Positions 1 to 19,572 of a DNA stretch of 25,355 bases are shown piece after piece. The position numbers were made by a program, and so were the translations under genes. Origin of the DNA: a virus (Duplodnaviria; Heunggongvirae; Uroviricota; Caudoviricetes); IMG/VR virus record IMGVR_UViG_2563366824_000002, positions 1-25,355 of that record. One strand, written 5' to 3'. A model generated the notes under the pieces. That model ran no database searches, was not told the origin of the DNA, and was given only the letters and a program-made list of their open reading frames with translations. Numbering within the stretch: position 1 is the stretch's first letter; every line of letters begins with the position of its first letter.

Positions 1-1164
1 TTACGCCTTCTTTATATCCTCCATAATTCCAGAGTGGGACATATTTGGGACATTATCACCAAAAATGTCGTCTATTTTCCTCGCATGCTCTGTCAAATGA
101 TTAGGCGCAAGGTGAGCATACCTACGAACCATTTCTATGGACTCCCATCCGCCCATTTCCTGAAGCACTGATAATGGGACGCCTGACTGAATCAGCCAGC
201 TTGCCCAGGTGTGTCTGAGGTCATGGAAACGGAAATCTTCAATTCCTGCACGACGACAAGCTGATAGCCATGATGTCTTGCTGTCGATGCGCATCTTCCT
301 GACCGCAGGCGTTGATGTTCCATCTGCTCGCTTAGCCGCCTTGGTATGTACAAACACCCATTTGTGATGCTTGCCTATTTGATCACGCAACACTTTACAG
401 GCGGTATCGTTCAGCGCCACACCAATGGCGCGGTTTGATTTGCTCTCTTCTGGATTCACCCAGGCAACTCGTCGCTGCATGTCGATTTGTTGCCATTCCA
501 GATTTATGATGTTCGACTTTCTCAGACCAGTTGCCAGCGCAAACTTGACGACAGATTTCAGTGGTTCGGGGCACTCATCAATAAGGCGTTTTGCTTCCTC
601 CTTTTCCAGCCATCTGACTCGCTTGTTTCTGACCGCTGGTATCTTGATGACAGGCGCTTTTTCCAGCCACTTCCAGTCGCGTTCTGCAGCACGGAGAATG
701 GCCTTTATCATGGCAAGATGCTTTGCCTTTGTCTGAGTTGATACTGGCTTTGGTTCATAAACAGGCGGTTCTTTACCTTTCCTGATGGCGGCCTGAACTT
801 TCTGTTTCCATATTTCTTTCGTCTTTCTGTTATGCATTCTGCTTACAGCAGAGTAAATCTTTGCCTCCGAGATATCTTTAAGCCTTATACCCTCAAAATG
901 TTCAAGCCAGAACTCAATCCGGCTTTTATCTGAATCGAGAGATTTTTTATCAGCTTTTTCCTCAAGCCATCTTAGGCAGGCCTCTTCAAAAGTGACATCA
1001 GGTAAATCCCCTAGCTTTTCTACTCGCCAGAGTTCTGCTTTTCGCTTGTCGTGCAACTCCTGAGCTTGCCGCTTGTCCTTTGTGCCAAGAGATTCCTTAA
1101 TTCGTTTCCCGCCCGGGAGCGAATACGAGGCATACCATATTTCATTTCTGCGGAAGAGTGACAT
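1..1164 (-). CDS. int: Tyrosine-recombinase phage integrase (DLP12 IntD-like, 387 aa)
   Basis: Full-length 387-aa ORF. C-terminal catalytic region carries the HDLRHTWAS and VRRYAHL motifs expected of the R-H-R-Y tyrosine recombinase fold. Leftmost gene, with its 5' end overlapped by the excisionase-like ORF as in lambdoid int-xis modules. Confidence 0.9.
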
Positions 1165-1391
1165 TTTCTTTCCTCTGTTATGCCATCACCCGCGCTCACC
1201 TGGACAGTATGCAGCGGAGACTGAAGCGCCGCAATGCAGGCTTGCCGTGTTGTGAGGTAAGGAGATTTTGGCTTGGTTGGATCTTTACGTGTTGCCTGTA
1301 GGCGGCCTGTTCGTATCCAGTTGGTGGCGGTTGGTCTGGATATCTTAAGAAACTGACAGGCCTCATCGAGTGTGAGGCTGTATGATTCCAT
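1020..1391 (-). CDS. xis: Excisionase-like HTH DNA-binding protein (Xis/AlpA type)
   Basis: ATG at 1391 is preceded by GAGG about 6 nt upstream on the minus strand. N-terminus [31 protein letters not shown] resembles the winged-helix excisionase fold. It overlaps the int 5' end in another frame. The length (123 aa) is longer than lambda Xis, so the true C-terminal extent is uncertain. Confidence 0.55.
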
Positions 1392-1641
1392 GGTTACCTC
1401 TGCTTTTTGAACGCATGTCACGTAACTTCTTAATGTGTTCTGCCGTTTCGATCTCTTCTGCTATCCGATCTGCATCAGCTTTATTCACAGGTTCAAAGTC
1501 ATGATTAAAGCGGAACATGCTGGCGATACATGTTCTGCCTTTTCGGATGTAGTGAACTTTGTTGTGGGTAGAACGCAGGATTTTGCAGGGAGTGCCGTGG
1601 TGGTCGACGTACCAGGTGTTAGGAAAAATGATTCTGAACAT
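1363..1641 (-). CDS. Hypothetical protein (92 aa) in the int-proximal accessory region
   Basis: ORF with GAGGTG 7 nt upstream of the ATG at 1641 (minus strand); its 3' end overlaps the xis start by about 29 nt. I do not recognise the family. Confidence 0.35.
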   Translation of the reverse strand: MFRIIFPNTWYVDHHGTPCKILRSTHNKVHYIRKGRTCIASMFRFNHDFEPVNKADADRIAEEIETAEHIKKLRDMRSKSRGNHGIIQPHTR

Positions 1642-1688
1642 TTTTACACCTCAGTTGGACGATGTTGAAATTTGCTGCTTTGAGGCCA

Positions 1689-1907
1689 TCACAGTCCCCA
1701 TTGTTTGTTCTTAAGTTCGATCTCCTCCTGGCAACTAGCACAAGTCCGACAACCCTGAACAGCCAGGCGTCTTCGCTCATCTATCGGATCGCCACACTCA
1801 CAACAATGAGTTGCGGATACAGTCTGGTAGTTCAGACGACGCATTTTTATTGCTGTATTGCGCTGTAATTCTTCGATTTCTGATGCTGAATCAATGATGT
1901 CTGCCAT
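1689..1907 (-). CDS. TraR/DksA-family C4-type zinc-finger protein (72 aa)
   Basis: Contains CCECGDPIDERRRLAVQGCRTCASCQ, i.e. a CxxC-(17)-CxxC arrangement typical of TraR/DksA zinc fingers that bind the RNA polymerase secondary channel. Small acidic N-terminus. Confidence 0.7.
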   Translation of the reverse strand: MADIIDSASEIEELQRNTAIKMRRLNYQTVSATHCCECGDPIDERRRLAVQGCRTCASCQEEIELKNKQWGL

Positions 1908-1957
1908 CTTTCATTAATCCCTGAATTGTTGGTTAATACGCTTGAGGATGAATGCGA

Positions 1958-1984
1958 ACAATAAAAAAGGAGCCTGTAGCTCCC
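1958..1984 (-). terminator. Probable intrinsic terminator downstream of the DGQHR gene (minus strand)
   Basis: GGAGC-CTGTA-GCTCC hairpin (1969..1983) followed on the minus strand by TTTTTTATT, lying between the DGQHR ORF stop (2061) and the TraR-like ORF start (1907). Confidence 0.5.
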
Positions 1985-2060
1985 TGATGATTTTGCTTTT
2001 CATGTTCACCGTTCCTTAAAGACGCCGTACAGCATGCTGATATGAGACAATGTTGATTCA

Positions 2061-3125
2061 TTAAGTTGTTTCCAGACTTCCTTTGGTAAAAGCTTGTATC
2101 AGTCTGTTTGCTGCTGCTTTCTGCGCTGCCACATTGGCAATAACAGATAGTTTTTCCTGGCTGGCTTTCGTGCAGATCCCCGCCCAGTTATCCATCAGAA
2201 AAAAATCCTCTCTTTCTGCAGAGCTGGTAGTTGCACATAGTTTTTCGATCATAGAAGTTATTTCTGCGATGGAATGATTAACCATCATCTGTTGAACCGC
2301 AAAACCGAAAGCGTTAATCATTACTCCATGGAACTGAATATAATCGCGCTTGTACGTAGCGTGGTGTACACCATGTCGAATTGAGTCAATCTGAGTTAGT
2401 GTAATCCATGCCTCCCAGACAGATTCTATATATCCCATTTCAAGTTGTTGATTGCCGTTCCTAGCGAACTTTGACGTTGCATCAGTGAGTGCCTTGAAAC
2501 TCACCCACATATTACTTTTTAATGGCACTACGTTGTGTTCAAAATCGGTTATATCGGCAAATACAGTATGTTGGGTCAGGAAGGATATCATTCCCTGAGC
2601 AATATCATCCCGGCCGTTATACGCCATATTGATGGTCGCTGATGGCTTAGAAACGTTGTTATTTATGTCCGAAAAGAACTGCTGCCGGGTTTTTAGCGGC
2701 AGATTCATTGTAAGCATCATGGGAACCATGAGCGTTGATGGGGAACTTCGGCAAAATATCTCAATGCCAGCTGCACGATGTTGACCATCAAAAAGTTTTA
2801 TTTCGGCGTCGAGGGGAATTCTGGCTATACCAACATTTGTGTTGCCAAACGGTACAAATTCTATATTCGAATCACAGTTACCTACGAGAGGGGGAATGAT
2901 AAAAGGCTCATTTCTTGAGTCTGCGTTAGTGAGATAATTTAAAAATTTTCGTACTCGATTTGGATTAATTTCTCGCTGAGAGCGTTCCAGTGTATGGCCG
3001 TAATTATCTGAAGCGAGGAAACGAGCCAGCGATCTTCCTGGTATGGTAAGGAAGAGTGTAACAGTACCACCCTGTACACCTTGCGATGCCGGAAATTCGA
3101 ATGAATGATTACCAACCTGACTCAT
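2061..3125 (-). CDS. DGQHR-domain protein (DndB-like, ParB/sulfiredoxin superfamily), standalone, 354 aa
   Basis: Contains the exact motif FDGQHR (…IKLFDGQHRAAGIE…) about 110 aa from the N-terminus, the signature of DndB/DpdB-type DGQHR domains. Strong RBS (AGGAGG) 7 nt upstream of the ATG at 3125. Bracketed by a 150-bp gap to exo on one side and a hairpin terminator on the other. Visibly more AT-rich than the neighbouring exo/bet. Confidence 0.75.
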   Translation of the reverse strand: MSQVGNHSFEFPASQGVQGGTVTLFLTIPGRSLARFLASDNYGHTLERSQREINPNRVRKFLNYLTNADSRNEPFIIPPLVGNCDSNIEFVPFGNTNVGIARIPLDAEIKLFDGQHRAAGIEIFCRSSPSTLMVPMMLTMNLPLKTRQQFFSDINNNVSKPSATINMAYNGRDDIAQGMISFLTQHTVFADITDFEHNVVPLKSNMWVSFKALTDATSKFARNGNQQLEMGYIESVWEAWITLTQIDSIRHGVHHATYKRDYIQFHGVMINAFGFAVQQMMVNHSIAEITSMIEKLCATTSSAEREDFFLMDNWAGICTKASQEKLSVIANVAAQKAAANRLIQAFTKGSLETT

Positions 3126-3276
3126 ATATCCTCCTGTTTATTATTTATCTTCTCAGCCAGCCGCTGTGCTTTCAGTGGATTTCTGATAACAGAAAGGCCG
3201 GGAAATACCCAGCCTCGCTTTGTAATTGAGTAGACGAAAGTGATCGCGCCTACCCGGATATTATCGTGAGGATGCG

Positions 3277-3957
3277 TCATCGCCATTGCTCCCCAAATAC
3301 AAAACCAATTTCAGCCAGTGCCTCGTCCATTTTTTCGATGAACTCCGGCACCATCTCGTCAAAACTCGCTATGTACTTTTCATCCCGCTCAACCACGACA
3401 TAATGCAGGCCTTCACGCTTCATACGCGGGTCATAGTTGGCAAAGTACCAGGCATCTTTTCGCGTCACCCACATGCTGTACTGCACCTGGGCCATGTAAG
3501 CCGACTTTATGGCCTCGAAACCACCGAGCCGGAACTTCATGAAATCCCGGGAGGTAAACGGGCATTTCAGCTCAAGGCCATTGCCGTCACTGCATAAACC
3601 ATCGGGAGAGCAGGCGGTGCGCATACTTTCGTCGCGATAGATGATCGGGGATTCAATAACATTTACGCCGGAAGTGAACTCAAACAGGGTTCTGGCGTCG
3701 TTCTCGTACTGTTTTCCCCAGGCCAGCGCTTTAGCGTTAACTTCCGGAGCCACACCGGTGCAAACCTCAGCCAGCAGGGTGTGGAAGTAGGACATTTTCA
3801 TGTCAGGCCACTTCTTTCCTGATCGGGGCTTTGCTATCACGTTGTGAACTTCTGAAGCGGTGATGACGCCGAGCCGTAATTTGTGCCATGCATCATCCCC
3901 CTGTTCGACAGCTCTCACGTCGATCCCGGTACGCTGCAGGATAATGTACGGTGTCAT
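3277..3957 (-). CDS. exo: Lambda-type exonuclease (Red-alpha, 226 aa)
   Basis: Translation is near-identical over its whole length to phage lambda Exo as I recall it ([64 protein letters not shown]…FVFGEQWR). Four-nt overlap with bet. Confidence 0.95.
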
Positions 3958-4739
3958 GCTGCCACCTTCTGCTCAGTGGCTTTCTGTTTCAGGAATCCAA
4001 GAGCTTTCACTGCTTCGGCCTGTGTCAGTTCTGACGATGCGCGAATGTCGCGGCGAAATATCTGGGAACAGAGCGGCAATAAGTCGTCATCCCATGTTTT
4101 ATCCAGGGCAATCAGCAGAGTGTTAATCTCCTGCATGGTTTCATCGTTAACCGGAGTGATGTCGCGTTCCGGCTGACGTTCTGCAGTGTATGCGGTATTT
4201 TCGACAATGCGCTCGGCTTCATCCTTGTCATAGATACCAGCAAATCCGAAGGCGAGACGGGCACACTGAATCATGGCTTTATGCCGTAACATCCGTTTGG
4301 GATGCGACTGCCACGGCCCCGTGATTTCTCTGCCTTCGCGGGTTTTGAATGGTTCGCGGCGGCATTCATCCATCCACTCGGTAACGCAGATCGGATGATT
4401 GCGGTCTTTGCGGTAAATCCGGCATGTGCAGGATTCGTTGTCCTGTTCAAAGTCCATGCCGTCAAACTGCTGGTTTTCGTTGATGATGCGGGACCAGCCA
4501 TCAACGCCCACCACCGGAACGATGCCGTTCTGCTTATCGGGGAAGGCGTAAATTTCTTTCGTCCACGGATTAAGGCCGTATTGGTTGGCGACGATCAGCA
4601 ATGCGGTGAACTGCGCATCGCTGGCATCGCCTTTAAATGCTGTCTGGCGAAGAGTGGTGATCAGTTCCTGTGGGTCGACAGAATCCATGCCGACACGTTC
4701 AGCCAGCTTCCCAGCCAGCGTTGCGAGTGCTGTACTCAT
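3954..4739 (-). CDS. bet: Lambda-type single-strand annealing protein Beta (Red-beta, 261 aa)
   Basis: Translation [38 protein letters not shown]… matches lambda Bet essentially throughout. Confidence 0.95.
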
Positions 4740-4744
4740 CCGTT

Positions 4745-5041
4745 TTATACCTCTGAATCAATATCAACCTGGTGGTGAGCAATGGTTTCAACCATGTACC
4801 GGATGTGTTCTGCCATGCGCTCCTGAAACTCAACATCGTCATCAAACGCACGGGTAATGGCTTTTTTGCTGGCCCCGTGGCGTTGCAAATGATCGATGCA
4901 TAGCGATTAAAACAGGTGCTGGGGCAGGCCTTTTTCCATGTCGTCTGCAAGTTCTGCCTCTTTCTCTTCACGGGCGATCTGCTGGTAGTGACGCGCCCAG
5001 CTCTGAGCCTCAAGACGATCCTGAATGTAATAAGCGTTCAT
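4745..5041 (-). pseudogene. gam: gam (RecBCD inhibitor, GamS-length) interrupted by an in-frame TAA
   Basis: Minus-strand reading from the ATG at 5041 gives [44 protein letters not shown], then TAA at 4907..4909, then in frame [15 protein letters not shown]…[10 protein letters not shown] to the stop at 4745..4747. Lambda has GAA (Glu) at this codon; here it is TAA. Both halves are under 60 aa, so the gene is absent from the ORF track. Confidence 0.8.
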
Positions 5042-9878: not shown

Positions 9879-12800
9879 ATGACCACTGTGAATAAAAAGT
9901 TAAAAAAAACTGCATCTGGCGCGATTACATGGTCAGTAATTGTTACCCAGATATTATCTCCAGTTTCTCTTTCTTTGATTCCGGCAAACAGTTTTGCATC
10001 GTCTGATAATAAAGATGTTACGCAAATTTATGCTAGCGATGAGCGTGCAAATAAAGTGGCCTCATTTGCAGTAAGTGCAGGTCAGAGTCTGGCGAATAAT
10101 AATGCAAGTAGTTTTGCTGTAAATACTTTATCAACTCAGGCGACAAAAGAGGTCGTCGATTGGTTGCAACAATATGGCAATGCGCGCATCAAGCTTAATG
10201 TCGATGATTCTTTTTCCTTGAAGGATTCATCATTCGACTTTTTATATCCATGGCTGGATACTCAGGATTATGTGCTATTCAGTCAAACATCACTACATCG
10301 TACTGATGACCGTAATCAGACCAATATTGGTTTGGGGATTCGTCATTTCACTCCTGATAATGCAATGTTGGGTGCGAATGTTTTCTACGATTATGATTTA
10401 AGTCGCAGCCACTCTCGCGCAGGTTTTGGGGTTGAGTACTGGAGAGATTATTTCAGGCTTGGTGTAAATACCTATTTTGGTTTATCTGACTGGAAGGACA
10501 GTCGGGATATTGATGATTATCTGGAAAGACCCGCAAATGGCTGGGATTTTTCTGCTGAAGGATGGCTACCTGCTTATCCGCAATTAGGGGCATCTATTCA
10601 GTTTGAAAAATATTATGGTAAAAATGTCGGATTATTTGGAAGCGATAATCTGCAGGAAAACCCTTACGCAGTTACTGGGGGAATTTCTTATACACCAGTT
10701 CCTCTGATTAAGTTTTCTGCACAGCATAAGCAAGGACAGAGCAACGTTCACGATACAACCTTTGGTGTTGAGTTTAATTACCGCCCAGGCGTTTCCCTTG
10801 CTGAACAGCTTAGCAGTGACAATGTTGCAGTTATGCGAGAAGTCCAGAACCGGCGTTATGATTTTGTTGAACGAAATAACAACATTGTTCTGGAGTACAA
10901 GAAGAAGCATGCACTGAAAATCAGCTTACCAGAGTCTGTTCAGGGGGATGGCGAATCAATCATCCCTGTAACACTGACAATCAACAATGCCAGTGGTGGT
11001 ATCAAGTCTGTACAGTGGAATGATAGTGTATTCACTGCGGCTGGCGGTAAGATCAGTGGAAATGGCACATCATGGCAGGTCACTTTACCGGCTTATAAAA
11101 GCGAAGGTGTAAATTCGTGGAATGTTGGAGCCACGGTCCAGGATAATAGAGGCAACGTTTCCAACTATGCGGTGATGAATATTAGCGTTATTAATAGTGG
11201 TGTCTCGACAGCGGATTCTTCTTTTACGTTGGATGGTGATTCGTCTCCGACGATCTCTGCTGATGGTCAATCCACTCATCCAATAGTATTAAGCCTGAAA
11301 GACAGTAACGGTAAGGCATTAACCGGACTGGCTGATGACATTGAAATGTCAGTGGAATTTACTGCGGATAGCAATAGTGCTCGACAGCGTGAAACGGTAA
11401 CTGCCCCGTCATTAGGCGCGGTAGAGGAAATCTCTGCTGGTGTATATCGCTCTGTTCTGACTGCTGGTTCGCAGGCTGGTACGGTACGTGTAACTGCAAA
11501 AGTAATGGATAAAACATTTACTCTCAGTATTAAGCAAACAGCAGCAACAGAACCTGATTCTGAGGTCAGTGCTGTTTTAACCGCTGCACCAGCAGAACAG
11601 GTAGTTGGTTACAATATCAATCTACAACTGGCAGTGAAGGATTCACAAGGAAATGCAATCACTGGTGATAACACTCTGAGCTTTTATGCTCTTAACCAGG
11701 CAGAAGGAGTCGAGTTTGGGGCTGTAACGGAAAAAGACGGTGTCTATAGCGCGACAGTAACTTCAAAACGAGCTGGTAAGATTCGGATCGGTGTTAAATC
11801 GGGTAGTCACAATTTCTCAGGTATTGAGAAAGAAATCTCCTTTATTGAAGATCGAACACAGTTCGCATTCTCTCGTATTGAAGCCAGTAAAAATAATGCA
11901 TTGGCTGACGGCAAACAACAGAATACGGTGACTGTAAGCCTTGCAGATCGTTTCGGCAATGTTGTGCCCGGTTATGCTGTTACGCTGTCCTTACCTGCGG
12001 GGGTAACTCAAGTTGGTGGTGAACATGCTGTGTCAACTGACGAAAACGGTAATGCTGTTTTTGCGTTAATAAGCTCCACTCCGGGTTCTTACGTGATTAA
12101 AGCTCATGCTGGTTCTCAGATGTCTACTGAGTTAACAGTAACCTTTGCATCAAATATGATCGGAGCTTCACTGTCACTGACGCCTGGAAACAGTAGCTTA
12201 ATTTCCAATATTCCTGCTAATGGTAAGGATGCTGCGGTATTGAATGTGCAACTGACAAATACGAATGCGTCGGTCAATGGACAGAAGATTCAGCTCATCA
12301 CCTCATCTGAAGGATTGTCTGTACCGACAAATATCGTGACTGATTCAACAGGGCATGTTTCCGTACCACTTACAACGGTGAGAGCTGGTGAGTATACGGT
12401 GGCTGCACGAGTGACTGACGGTTCCCATAGTGTGGAGTCTGGCAGCGTTAAGTTAACTTTTGTACCAGATGCTGCTTCCGCAGAACTTACTATGAGTACA
12501 TCAAAACAGCAGATTGTGGCCGATGGTAGTGAAAGTGCAACAGTGGACATTCAGTTGGTTGATGCCAATAACAATGCGTTTACAGGCGATGTGGATTTAA
12601 CGGTTACACCATCGACGGGAGCATCATTGACCAGTAGTAAACTGCAGTTGGATGCTCATGGACAGGCAACAACGCAGTTCACAGCATCGAAATCAGGCCA
12701 GTACACAATTCAGGCTGAGTATGTTCTAGATGGGAAACGTATAACCGCAAGCAAAAATATTGATGCCGTGACGGATGTGAAGGAGGCTGTGTTGGAGATC

Positions 12801-13430
12801 ACATCATCTGCATCTTCGGCTGTAGTGAGCGATACCAACAATCTGATATTTACGTTACTGTTGAAAAGTACGTCAGGCGAAGTATTAAGTGGTCGAGTAT
12901 TGAATATCAAGGCATCTGGGCCGTCCAAATATGGTGCGTTGGTGGTTGATAAAACCACTGTAACGACTGATGAGTATGGTCTGGCTACGGTAAGCGTACA
13001 TGGTCGAACGGCTGGTTCGTATAAATTAACGGCGACCTTAGATGAACTTGGCAGTGATGTTAGTGAGGTGAAGTCATTCTCTCTGTATGCTGATGAGGCA
13101 AATGGAGTATTGACACTGCATAAAGATGGAGGCTATGACACAGATGATGGTACTCCAGTGGGGGTTTATGCCCGATTTGTTGACCATTTCGGCAATCCGT
13201 TATCTGGTACGGTTGAGTTTTCTGCTGGTAGTGAAGATAGTCCAAACTCTCAACGGGTTAAAATGGAGCCTGCTACAGTAACGTTACACTGGACAGGTAA
13301 TGCAGCCTCGGAGTTCAGCACCTATGAAAGCGGTTATCACTGGATTAAGGCCAAAATAACGAACAGCAAAAATACATATGAGAAAACAATAAGGACTTAT
13401 GTTGTAAAGCTCCCTGAAAAGGATAGTTAA
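9879..13430 (+). CDS. Invasin/intimin-family inverse autotransporter adhesin (1183 aa) with a long array of Ig-like (Big) repeats
   Basis: N-terminal signal peptide. Beta-domain strongly resembles invasin (…EGWLPAYPQLGASIQFEKYYGKNVGLFGSDNLQENPYAVTGGISYTPVPLIKFSAQHKQGQSNVHDTTFGVEFNYRPG…RRYDFVERNNNIVLEYKKK). Followed by about 800 aa of repeated roughly 100-aa modules. Preceded by a 240-bp AT-rich intergenic region. Confidence 0.85.
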   Translation: MTTVNKKLKKTASGAITWSVIVTQILSPVSLSLIPANSFASSDNKDVTQIYASDERANKVASFAVSAGQSLANNNASSFAVNTLSTQATKEVVDWLQQYGNARIKLNVDDSFSLKDSSFDFLYPWLDTQDYVLFSQTSLHRTDDRNQTNIGLGIRHFTPDNAMLGANVFYDYDLSRSHSRAGFGVEYWRDYFRLGVNTYFGLSDWKDSRDIDDYLERPANGWDFSAEGWLPAYPQLGASIQFEKYYGKNVGLFGSDNLQENPYAVTGGISYTPVPLIKFSAQHKQGQSNVHDTTFGVEFNYRPGVSLAEQLSSDNVAVMREVQNRRYDFVERNNNIVLEYKKKHALKISLPESVQGDGESIIPVTLTINNASGGIKSVQWNDSVFTAAGGKISGNGTSWQVTLPAYKSEGVNSWNVGATVQDNRGNVSNYAVMNISVINSGVSTADSSFTLDGDSSPTISADGQSTHPIVLSLKDSNGKALTGLADDIEMSVEFTADSNSARQRETVTAPSLGAVEEISAGVYRSVLTAGSQAGTVRVTAKVMDKTFTLSIKQTAATEPDSEVSAVLTAAPAEQVVGYNINLQLAVKDSQGNAITGDNTLSFYALNQAEGVEFGAVTEKDGVYSATVTSKRAGKIRIGVKSGSHNFSGIEKEISFIEDRTQFAFSRIEASKNNALADGKQQNTVTVSLADRFGNVVPGYAVTLSLPAGVTQVGGEHAVSTDENGNAVFALISSTPGSYVIKAHAGSQMSTELTVTFASNMIGASLSLTPGNSSLISNIPANGKDAAVLNVQLTNTNASVNGQKIQLITSSEGLSVPTNIVTDSTGHVSVPLTTVRAGEYTVAARVTDGSHSVESGSVKLTFVPDAASAELTMSTSKQQIVADGSESATVDIQLVDANNNAFTGDVDLTVTPSTGASLTSSKLQLDAHGQATTQFTASKSGQYTIQAEYVLDGKRITASKNIDAVTDVKEAVLEITSSASSAVVSDTNNLIFTLLLKSTSGEVLSGRVLNIKASGPSKYGALVVDKTTVTTDEYGLATVSVHGRTAGSYKLTATLDELGSDVSEVKSFSLYADEANGVLTLHKDGGYDTDDGTPVGVYARFVDHFGNPLSGTVEFSAGSEDSPNSQRVKMEPATVTLHWTGNAASEFSTYESGYHWIKAKITNSKNTYEKTIRTYVVKLPEKDS

Positions 13431-15791: not shown

Positions 15792-16874
15792 TTAGAACTG
15801 ATACACCAGACCTACAGCGACGATGTCGTCGGTATCAATACCAGCTGTTTTGGTAAACTTACTATCGTCAATTAAGTTGATTTTGTAATCAACAAAAGTG
15901 GACATGTTTTTATTAAAGTAGTAAGTAGCACCGACATCGACATACTTGACTAAGTCTCGGTCACCATGAACACCAAGGTCTTTACCTTTTGACTGAAGGT
16001 AAGCAACAGATGGTCGCAGACCGAAGTCAAACTGATATTGTGCTACTGCTTCAAAGTTTTGTGCTTTGTTTGCAATATGGTTATTACCAAAAACGGTCAT
16101 ATTCTGAGTTTCAGAATATGTGGTAGCCAGATAGATATTGTTCGCATCATATTTCAGGCCTGCAGCCCATACTTCCGCATTTTTGCCGGAGGCATTGAAT
16201 TTGCTCTTACCATAGGCGACCTGACCGTCAGTGCGATCTGATTTAGCATAGGTTGCACCCACGCCGAATCCTTCATACTCATAAGTAGTGGAGAAACCGA
16301 AACCATCACCATTGGCTTCAGTTACGTCAGTGCGGTCATTTTTACCCTGATACTGAGCAGCAAAGTTCAGGCCATCGACCAGACCAAAGAAGTCGTTGTT
16401 ACGATAGGTTGCAACACCAGTGGTGCGACCAGTCATGAACACATCTGTTTGGGTCCAGGTATCGCCACCGAATTCTGGCAGAACGTCAGTCCACGCACCG
16501 ATGTCGTATGCTACACCGTAGTTACGGCCGTAATCGATTGAGCCGTAGTCACCGAATTTCAGGCCTGCAAATGCAAGACGGGTTTTGTCTTTGGAGGAAC
16601 CTTGAGATTCAGCGCGGTTGCCTTTGAATTCATATTCCCACTGACCGAAACCAGTCAGTTGATCGTTGATTTGGGTTTCACCTTTGAAGCCAAGACGGGC
16701 ATAAGTAGTATCACCATCATCTGCATCGTTAGAGGAAAAGTAGTGCTTGGCATTAACTTTCCCGTACAGATCCAGCTTGTTACTGTCTTTATTATAAATT
16801 TCAGCTGCCTGAGCAGACATCGCCATCAGTACTGATGCAGCTACAGCAGAAATTGCCACTGTTAATTTTTTCAT
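15792..16874 (-). CDS. nmpC: OmpC-family general porin (NmpC-like, 360 aa), apparently intact
   Basis: Signal peptide [23 protein letters not shown], porin beta-barrel sequence and the C-terminal …VAVGLVYQF typical of OmpC/OmpF/NmpC porins. Encoded antisense between Q and the holin. Confidence 0.9.

Positions 16875-17462: not shown

Positions 17463-19572
<2,110 letters not shown>

Follow-up and report, generated by a model that had tools for sequence, protein, structure and literature searches.

What does a protein of the DGQHR/DndB fold, known until now from work on host systems made up of several genes (Dnd, Dpd, Ssp, GmrSD) and from nowhere else, do when its gene stands alone in the early operon of a phage? 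The question is raised by the IMG/VR virus record IMGVR_UViG_2563366824_000002 (Duplodnaviria; Heunggongvirae; Uroviricota; Caudoviricetes), of which positions 1 to 25,355 were analysed and are referred to here as the window. The window is one complete, decayed lambdoid prophage located at the argU/DLP12 site (intD to appY, 25 kb), and the window list of open reading frames (ORFs) holds, on the minus strand at 2061..3125, one of 354 amino acids (aa) plus stop that encodes a DGQHR-domain protein. A first reading of the sequence, made without database searches (the original prediction), had taken this gene for a self-contained module that could encode either a single-gene superinfection exclusion factor or an anti-defence protein directed against phosphorothioation (PT)-dependent host defence. 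The reading that we tentatively prefer, while giving it somewhat less than an even chance, is that of an early-expressed, nucleoside triphosphate (NTP)-gated, DNA-binding anti-restriction or anti-defence accessory, as suggested by analogy with characterised relatives.

The question reaches beyond one prophage, as this lone and conserved gene is found in about 5% of the complete E. coli genomes, in lambdoid prophages of Enterobacterales and in more than 1000 mostly conjugative plasmids, and in the contexts examined it occupies the site of genes that an element needs within minutes of entering a cell or being induced there. If the anti-restriction or anti-defence role were true, it would represent a new mechanism class, relevant to the range of hosts open to phages and resistance plasmids, while a role in DNA modification or developmental tuning would provide a function for the exo-xis region, one of the last uncharted parts of lambda-type genomes.

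An orphan member of the DGQHR superfamily

The deduced protein reads ...AEIKLFDGQHRAAGIE... and contains the K-L-F-D-G-Q-H-R motif exactly; the original prediction had given it as FDGQHR and had not named the strand. The match is genuine, with scores far beyond chance in four collections: Pfam DndB PF14072 (E = 3.8e-46, 158.2 bits vs. a cutoff of 29.1, residues 11–286), NCBIfam TIGR03187 “DGQHR domain” (188.8 bits vs. a cutoff of 58.85), the PADLOC DndB model (4e-37, no other PADLOC model being matched) and PHROG 7901 (phrog_7901, “unknown function”; E = 7e-216, residues 1–353 on profile positions 1–353 of 355). The hallmarks of DGQHR domains, i.e., a QR pair, a near-invariant DGQHR and FxxxN (Machnicka et al. 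2015, PMC4619093), are present as Q50-R51, D113-R117 and F151..N155, all invariant in our alignment A1 and conserved in A2 (37 close and 12 distant relatives). The signature D113-G-Q-H-R117 itself (codons at 2775..2789, minus strand) is invariant in both alignments and, judged from sequence and secondary structure, lies at a strand-to-helix junction, like box II of ParB and the FGGCHR motif of sulfiredoxin (Srx). About 100 positions spread along the full length are invariant across relatives at 52–73% identity.

The existence of the gene is not new, as RefSeq already holds a “DGQHR domain-containing protein” and a PHROG exists. The DndB equivalog model TIGR03233 yielded only 106.9 bits, under its cutoff of 328, and the identity to the bona fide E. 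coli DndB (dndBCDE-dptFGH island, strain NADC 6564) is 23% over the approximately 290 alignable residues; on these two grounds we class the window protein, by its sequence, as a member of the DGQHR superfamily and not as a DndB orthologue. In the NADC 6564 island (L259, 6608..7768), two extra ORFs annotated as DGQHR/DndB are located between dndE and dptH. The possibility that the window gene is a member or a fragment of a dnd or dpd operon was rejected, given the failed equivalog cutoff, the annotated contexts devoid of dnd/dpd, and a full-length, conserved ORF. The claim that no dnd or dpd partner accompanies it held across the whole 25-kb prophage, where TGT-like and methyltransferase genes are also absent. 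Nor was any dnd/dpd partner recorded in the 8 homologous loci with full annotation (Serratia, Tatumella, Klebsiella, Salmonella phage SPN1S, E. coli); in approximately 200 other loci the screen was chiefly one for methyltransferases, Pfam being run only on selected representatives of neighbour clusters, and there dnd/dpd genes are not formally excluded.

A full-length AlphaFold2 model built with 37 homologues as input (predicted local distance difference test, pLDDT, 79.1; predicted template modelling score, pTM, 0.52) supports a ParB/Srx fold in the N-terminal part (approximately aa 8–170), followed by an all-helical C-terminal domain (approximately aa 172–354). The fold comparison gave figures of 8.1 for PadC, 6.2 and 5.9 for sulfiredoxins, 5.9 and 5.7 for SbnI and SerK, 5.6 for pNOB8 ParB-N, 5.3 for KorB, 4.9 for BrxU and 4.4 for SspE, so that the ParB-like fold on which the original prediction had made its identification depend is indeed the one predicted. 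The loops modelled with low confidence coincide with the invariant RSQRE and SDINNNVSKPS motifs. No helix-turn-helix (HTH) or ParB match was found by a Pfam scan of the protein, the C-terminal half has no HTH or other recognisable DNA-reading domain, and no nuclease (DUF1524/HNH) or other effector domain was found in the protein.

The C-terminal domain (aa 172–354, 2061..2612) carries an invariant polar patch formed by D194, E196, K203, K211, D215, Y258, K259, Q264, H266, and E306, which is mostly retained in relatives at 27–40% identity and matches no known catalytic motif. A C-terminal nuclease was considered and discarded, as the invariant DFEHNVVP resembles the EHxxP of SspE only superficially (the spacing differs, H197 varies and E. 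coli DndB has K in its place). A D...SxK...D arrangement as a variant of PD-(D/E)xK was likewise rejected, and the patch is left unexplained.

A single-gene cassette in the leftward early operon

Blastn comparison with phage lambda aligned window positions 1712..2041 to lambda 30418..30747 (92.7% identity) and 3123..3500 to lambda 31194..31571 (96.6% identity). Between them lies a non-lambda cassette of approximately 1.1 kb (2042..3135, minus strand), delimited by blastn, base-level junctions and GC content, which consists of the ORF, its own ribosome-binding site and 19 bp of 3' sequence, and which takes the place of lambda 30748..~31206, i.e., orf63, orf61 and about 90 bp. The upstream homology stops approximately 10 nt before the start codon, where the window reads AGGAGGATAT-ATG and lambda GAGGGGCTGT-ATG, and the ATG of the DGQHR gene occupies the same position as that of orf63. 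The Shine-Dalgarno sequence AGGAGG (3130..3135, minus strand), 4 nt upstream of the ATG, differs from the GAGGGG found there in lambda, and we conclude from this difference that it arrived with the cassette. The lambda genes share with the DGQHR gene their position, their operon and their flanks (orf60a and orf73), whereas their products, of 63 and 61 aa, are unrelated to it, which makes this a non-homologous replacement. Cassette GC content is 0.426 (0.389 at third codon positions, GC3), lower than in the Red genes exo (3277..3957, minus strand, Pfam YqaJ; GC 0.524, GC3 0.621) and bet (3954..4739, minus strand, Pfam RecT; GC 0.532, GC3 0.595), which lie upstream in the same leftward operon and were identified by Pfam and by the annotation of an identical prophage.

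Genes located within the exo-xis region are transcribed early from pL (PMC8614690), and several features tie the DGQHR gene to this transcript. Its upstream neighbour is a homologue of orf60a (DUF1317; 3122..3286, minus strand), the usual one in the family (37 of the 87 loci, encoding 57 distinct proteins, in our neighbourhood analysis), and the ATG of the DGQHR gene overlaps the orf60a TGA as ATGA (3122..3125), which suggests translational coupling. A specific functional coupling with orf60a was rejected, since orf60a is a backbone gene that is followed by many different genes. A terminator scan identified a hairpin inside orf60a (3194..3216, minus strand) that corresponds to tL3, the rho-independent terminator of lambda: in phage O276, tL3 is annotated inside orf60a, and the region is 96.6% identical to lambda. 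With this hairpin immediately upstream, only antiterminated transcripts should reach the DGQHR gene, and a simple consensus scan predicted no sigma-70-like promoter on the coding strand in the stretch from bet to the DGQHR gene.

The DGQHR gene is followed, after a 153-bp gap, by a homologue of orf73 (1689..1907, minus strand), a TraR/DksA-type zinc finger protein according to Pfam and NCBIfam that corresponds to an unannotated frame in lambda and has been described as TraR-like (PMC8614690). The hairpin and T-run found in this gap (1967..1985, minus strand) resemble a terminator and are base-for-base identical in lambda, and therefore belong to the backbone and not to the cassette. As regards the original prediction, its strong ribosome-binding site and the higher AT content relative to the flanking recombination genes were borne out by these comparisons, while the gene's own terminator turned out to be lambda sequence and the self-contained module had to be given up in view of the overlap with orf60a, the lack of a predicted promoter and the position beyond tL3. 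Its placement in the accessory region between int and exo was right (exo-xis, at the orf63/orf61 position), though not the comparison with the b region.

Distribution and purifying selection

Of 5426 complete E. coli genomes, 282 contain the cassette with its flanks at ≥ 99% identity, and at least two attachment sites are used (argU and icd/e14). At icd/e14, one copy is a pseudogene in a fuller prophage and the other is intact in a heavily decayed remnant. The latter, in E. coli O157:H16 98-3133 (L016), is reduced to int, xis, orf73, the intact DGQHR gene, orf60a and a truncated exo, and adjoins an McrBC-like AAA ATPase/McrC pair. The changes segregating among 34 E. coli-type copies (17 haplotypes) comprised 18 synonymous, 6 nonsynonymous and 1 nonsense, and the resulting ratio of nonsynonymous to synonymous polymorphism (pN/pS) of approximately 0.10 shows that the orphan gene is under purifying selection in E. 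coli. Codon 47 (2985..2987), just before the invariant RSQRE, occurs in these copies as E47A, E47D, and E47stop, and may be a mutational hotspot or a site of diversifying or inactivating pressure.

Outside E. coli, relatives of approximately 355 aa form a tight clade at 52–73% identity in Salmonella, Klebsiella, Enterobacter, Citrobacter, Serratia, Hafnia, Tatumella, and others. All annotated copies map to the early-left arms of lambdoid prophages, where they share the strand of int, lie between the repressor/recombination genes and xis/int and have varying neighbours. Relatives occupy the same slot in lambdoid prophages across Enterobacterales, a recurrence that the original prediction had named as worth a survey. 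Relatives are encoded by 183 IMG/VR contigs and by isolated phages (Salmonella SPN1S, SPC32H, and SPN9TCW, as well as several Klebsiella phages), and no record of an isolated E. coli phage carries the gene. A tandem arrangement was seen in Rheinheimera pacifica (L129), where a second paralogue of the DndB family follows the first.

Relatives on conjugative plasmids

Homologues of 427–438 aa (approximately 42% identity, approximately 88% coverage) were recovered by tblastn in 1071 plasmid records, 885 of them conjugative. On the IncL/M plasmid pENT-d0d, the gene is part of a same-strand array that encodes RadC, an HTH protein, the DGQHR protein, a methyltransferase-domain/DUF4942 protein, KlcA (ArdB-type anti-restriction) and the single-stranded DNA-binding protein SSB, and that ends approximately 10 kb from the mobC | nikA-mobA (oriT) junction, pointing toward it. 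Genes of the leading region are transcribed from the incoming T-strand, and conjugation biology sets the position and orientation expected of them. The pENT-d0d gene has both, and we infer that it lies in the leading region. The gene after the homologue is psiA in Buttiauxella and Dryocola. Anti-defence genes and orphan methyltransferases are overrepresented in leading regions (PMC11541004), where ParB homologues also occur (PMC7736820). The supplementary tables of the former study list DGQHR proteins without comment, as a family of 7 members only.

An IS1 insertion divides the plasmid-type gene in L257 (NZ_CP068907.1, 30185..32244) and in about 15 similar 63.6-kb conjugative IncL/M plasmids, whose clinical hosts are Klebsiella, E. 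coli, Enterobacter, and Citrobacter. Other IncL/M plasmids have intact copies, and the two forms constitute a natural knockout/wild-type pair.

Methyltransferases as near-constants of the neighbourhood

In the clade nearest to the window protein (73% identity), all 6 sequences have a DNA methyltransferase gene on the same strand just downstream, and such a gene lies within approximately 0.5 kb downstream, often with a 4-bp overlap, in about 41 of about 58 loci that are not of the E. coli type. Five unrelated Pfam families are represented beside the DGQHR gene (MT-A70, Dam PF05869, N6_N4, C5, and D12), and the adjacency recurs in Rheinheimera and Vibrio loci as well as in distant homologues of Vibrio and Pseudoalteromonas phages. 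In Arsukibacterium only a sub-threshold Dam-like match was obtained, and the related Shewanella protein had no Pfam match. At first sight, such a pattern is that of non-orthologous displacement around a functional partner. No methyltransferase gene adjoins the versions of E. coli, Klebsiella, Serratia, and Tatumella.

As a control, 79 loci were anchored on the backbone gene orf60a and chosen regardless of DGQHR. A DGQHR gene occurred in only 1 of 74 of these loci, and where it was lacking a methyltransferase was still found in the same position in 65 of 73 (89%), often directly after orf60a. A dedicated methyltransferase partner was rejected on this basis: because so many sister loci keep the methyltransferase there, the adjacency reflects the neighbourhood, of which the methyltransferase is a near-constant and the DGQHR gene an occasional insert between it and orf60a. 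The slot after orf60a (IMG/VR lambdoid loci L178-L256) is a hotspot of DNA modification, with MT-A70, Dam, N6_N4, D12, and C5 methyltransferases. The same slot also held a 605-aa C5-Dam fusion, a fusion of a PAPS reductase (DndC-like) with Dam (L228), stand-alone PAPS reductases (L236, L248) and a recurrent 250-aa protein with no Pfam match (L179, 8 loci).

At about 26 loci (L053-L083, L097-L098) small proteins are encoded between the DGQHR gene and the methyltransferase. One of them (C5) has 154 aa, a Cys-rich C-terminus and no Pfam match. The other (C16) has 179 aa, repeated HTH units and a sub-threshold GcrA-like match; GcrA is a methylation-responsive regulator, and a link of this second protein to adenine methylation is conceivable for that reason.

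Proposed role and rival explanations

We propose that a single-gene cassette entered a lambda-type backbone, replacing orf63/orf61, and that its product would combine a nucleotide-binding domain of the ParB/sulfiredoxin fold with a family-specific helical domain. Expression would take place within the leftward pL operon of early genes, with translational coupling to orf60a and from no transcripts other than those extending past tL3, and would therefore fall into prophage induction or infection and not into the repressed lysogenic state. By analogy with DndB, a DndB-like binder of ATP and GTP, DpdB, the NTPase domains of SspE/BrxU/GmrSD and ParB/KorB, the protein could act as an NTP-gated, probably dimeric, DNA-binding switch, which would protect or condition the DNA of its own element when this becomes active in a cell, with no need for a dedicated partner gene. 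NTP and DNA binding, dimerisation, the timing of expression and the anti-defence role are thus all deduced, from relatives and from position.

The fold is known, while the architecture (a lone gene, no effector, no operon partners) and the biological setting are different from those of the systems characterised so far. DndB (DptB), the regulator of dndBCDE and a homodimeric DNA binder that represses this operon (PMC4507180), has the same PF14072/TIGR03187 domain, the same QR/DGQHR/FxxxN motifs and a similar length, but it heads a chromosomal modification operon, whereas the window gene has no dndCDE neighbours and is located in a phage early operon. DpdB is likewise a ParB-fold NTPase with a helical C-terminal domain lacking a nuclease motif; it is a DNA-stimulated ATPase that forms no stable complex with its enzyme partner, and ATP hydrolysis is needed for preQ0 insertion by DpdA (PMC10164549). 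Unlike the window protein, it has DGQQR and dpdA/dpdC neighbours, and no TGT-like gene was seen in the window or in the annotated DGQHR contexts. The DUF262 (GmrS) domains of SspE, BrxU, and GmrSD belong to host defence effectors with a C-terminal DUF1524/HNH nuclease, whereas the window protein is nuclease-free and its gene belongs to the early operon of a mobile element. Compared with the CTP-dependent switches ParB, PadC, and KorB and with sulfiredoxin, to which sequence similarity is undetectable, it has neither an HTH/parS-binding domain nor a ParA partner, and the window contains no parA. With the orphan methyltransferases of leading regions and of early phage regions and with fusions of ParB-fold and methyltransferase domains, which are enriched in prophages (PMC12704722; the DndB-like binder of ATP and GTP is from the same study), the gene has its neighbourhood and presumed expression timing in common, but the protein lacks a methyltransferase domain and, according to the synteny control, an adjacent methyltransferase neither needs it nor is needed by it.

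A function at induction or entry (anti-defence, DNA protection) is favoured over that of an exclusion factor expressed in the lysogen because the gene is placed in the pL operon past tL3 and without a predicted promoter, plasmid relatives are situated in a leading region, and the slot is otherwise filled by DNA-modification enzymes. Both the gene in the pL operon and its homologue in the pENT-d0d array have the early-region location and the orientation typical of anti-defence genes of mobile elements. A broader version, in which stand-alone DGQHR proteins would be a widespread and unrecognised anti-defence class common to the early operons of lambdoid phages and the leading regions of conjugative plasmids (IncL/M resistance plasmids among them), acting as an NTP-gated ParB-fold clamp that shields DNA or jams host defences of the same fold (Dnd, Ssp, Dpd, BrxU/GmrSD), is doubtful.

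Several observations weigh against an anti-defence accessory. The role would be assigned through guilt by association, and the neighbourhoods also hold the TraR-like orf73, RdgC, exonucleases, and DUF550. The displaced orf63 and orf61 are reported to modulate the lysis-lysogeny decision and not defence (orf60a, orf63, and orf61 being pro-lytic, orf73 and ea22 pro-lysogenic; PMC8614690), and the slot is therefore not purely one of anti-defence. The only specific partnership that synteny could test, that of a methyltransferase helper, failed its control; the full-length model is only moderate, with low confidence in the two most conserved loops; and the absence of a promoter rests on a simple consensus scan. 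The gene is also dispensable in some hosts, as indicated by nonsense alleles in 2 of the 34 E. coli-type copies, and in the many IncL/M plasmids with IS1-split copies. In the window itself gam is split by a stop codon (4745..5041), no N gene is recognisable, head genes are absent and there are several pseudogenes; given the state of gam, N, and the head genes, the early-left operon may be transcriptionally dead, and the DGQHR gene may not be expressed from this copy.

Part of the same evidence would suit a helper ATPase similar to DpdB (PMC10164549), which would remodel DNA or load on it and so make modification of replicating phage DNA efficient, whether by a phage methyltransferase where one is adjacent or, where none is, by host Dam/Dcm or the enzyme of another prophage. 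The downstream methyltransferases of five unrelated families outside the E. coli-type loci, up to those of Rheinheimera, Vibrio, and Pseudoalteromonas, point in this direction, as do the ParB-fold/methyltransferase fusions common in prophages (PMC12704722). We nevertheless consider a helper rather unlikely, as most control loci retain the methyltransferase without DGQHR, four genera have versions without an adjacent one, the E. coli lineage is under purifying selection nonetheless, and this prophage contains no methyltransferase gene. The superinfection exclusion of the original prediction, broadened to any lysogen-benefiting defence in which a DGQHR NTPase would sense foreign or modified DNA and block infection, perhaps through a host effector, is unlikely as well. 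The intact gene in heavily decayed remnants (the window and the e14 site of 98-3133) could mean host domestication, and the low pN/pS also speaks for a defence factor, yet the protein has no nuclease or effector domain and no PADLOC match except DndB, its position beyond tL3 with no predicted promoter and with coupling to orf60a argues against expression in a repressed lysogen, and its plasmid homologues are placed in a leading region, a site where anti-defence rather than defence genes are overrepresented.

The anti-PT idea of the original prediction falls within another improbable explanation, that of a DndB-like regulator or decoy acting on phage development, or on host systems of the DGQHR/DUF262 type (Dnd, Ssp, Dpd, BrxU/GmrSD) through repression or through dead-end heterodimers formed at the dimer interface of the ParB fold. 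DndB is a homodimeric repressor (PMC4507180), and the gene replaces developmental-decision genes of lambda (PMC8614690). With dndCD in 207 of 5426 E. coli genomes, a target exists in the host species and a specific anti-Dnd role is ecologically possible; nothing that we found points specifically to it. Sharing operator specificity or heterodimerising with DndB is unlikely at 23% identity unless specifically adapted, the C-terminal half offers no HTH or other DNA-reading domain, and Dnd is far less widespread among hosts than the family is among plasmids and phages. The palindrome TACGN10CGTA, the operator bound by DndB, is absent from the window, a result of little weight since only 0.13 occurrences would be expected by chance. 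That the gene is neutral cargo, a passenger in decay that serves E. coli no purpose at present, is very improbable: a defective prophage with several pseudogenes, the nonsense alleles at codon 47 and the IS1-split plasmid-type gene would all be in line with it, whereas the pN/pS across 17 haplotypes, the roughly 100 invariant positions along the full length and the recurrence in 282 genomes and at two attachment sites contradict it. The early-expressed anti-restriction or anti-defence accessory stays our tentative preference.

The original prediction knew of no characterised example, and none was found in the literature in a phage or plasmid context: the publications found on DGQHR, DndB/prophage, exo-xis, DpdB, and leading regions contained no functional study of the stand-alone mobile-element subfamily, and those on exo-xis mention no DGQHR gene. 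Two articles considered as a link between phages and dndB (PMC8569181, PMC6408774) were rejected, as they deal with host dnd clusters only.

Other prophage cargo

The remaining cargo and decay features of the window lie away from the early-left operon. The nin region contains a gene for a 1183-aa inverse autotransporter with IAT_beta and Big_1 repeats (9879..13430, plus strand), and a porin of the OmpC/NmpC type (15792..16874, minus strand) and lom are also present. An IS3-family transposase (17685..18898, plus strand) is inserted beside a C-terminal fragment of the truncated tail-tip gene J (18895..19572, plus strand).

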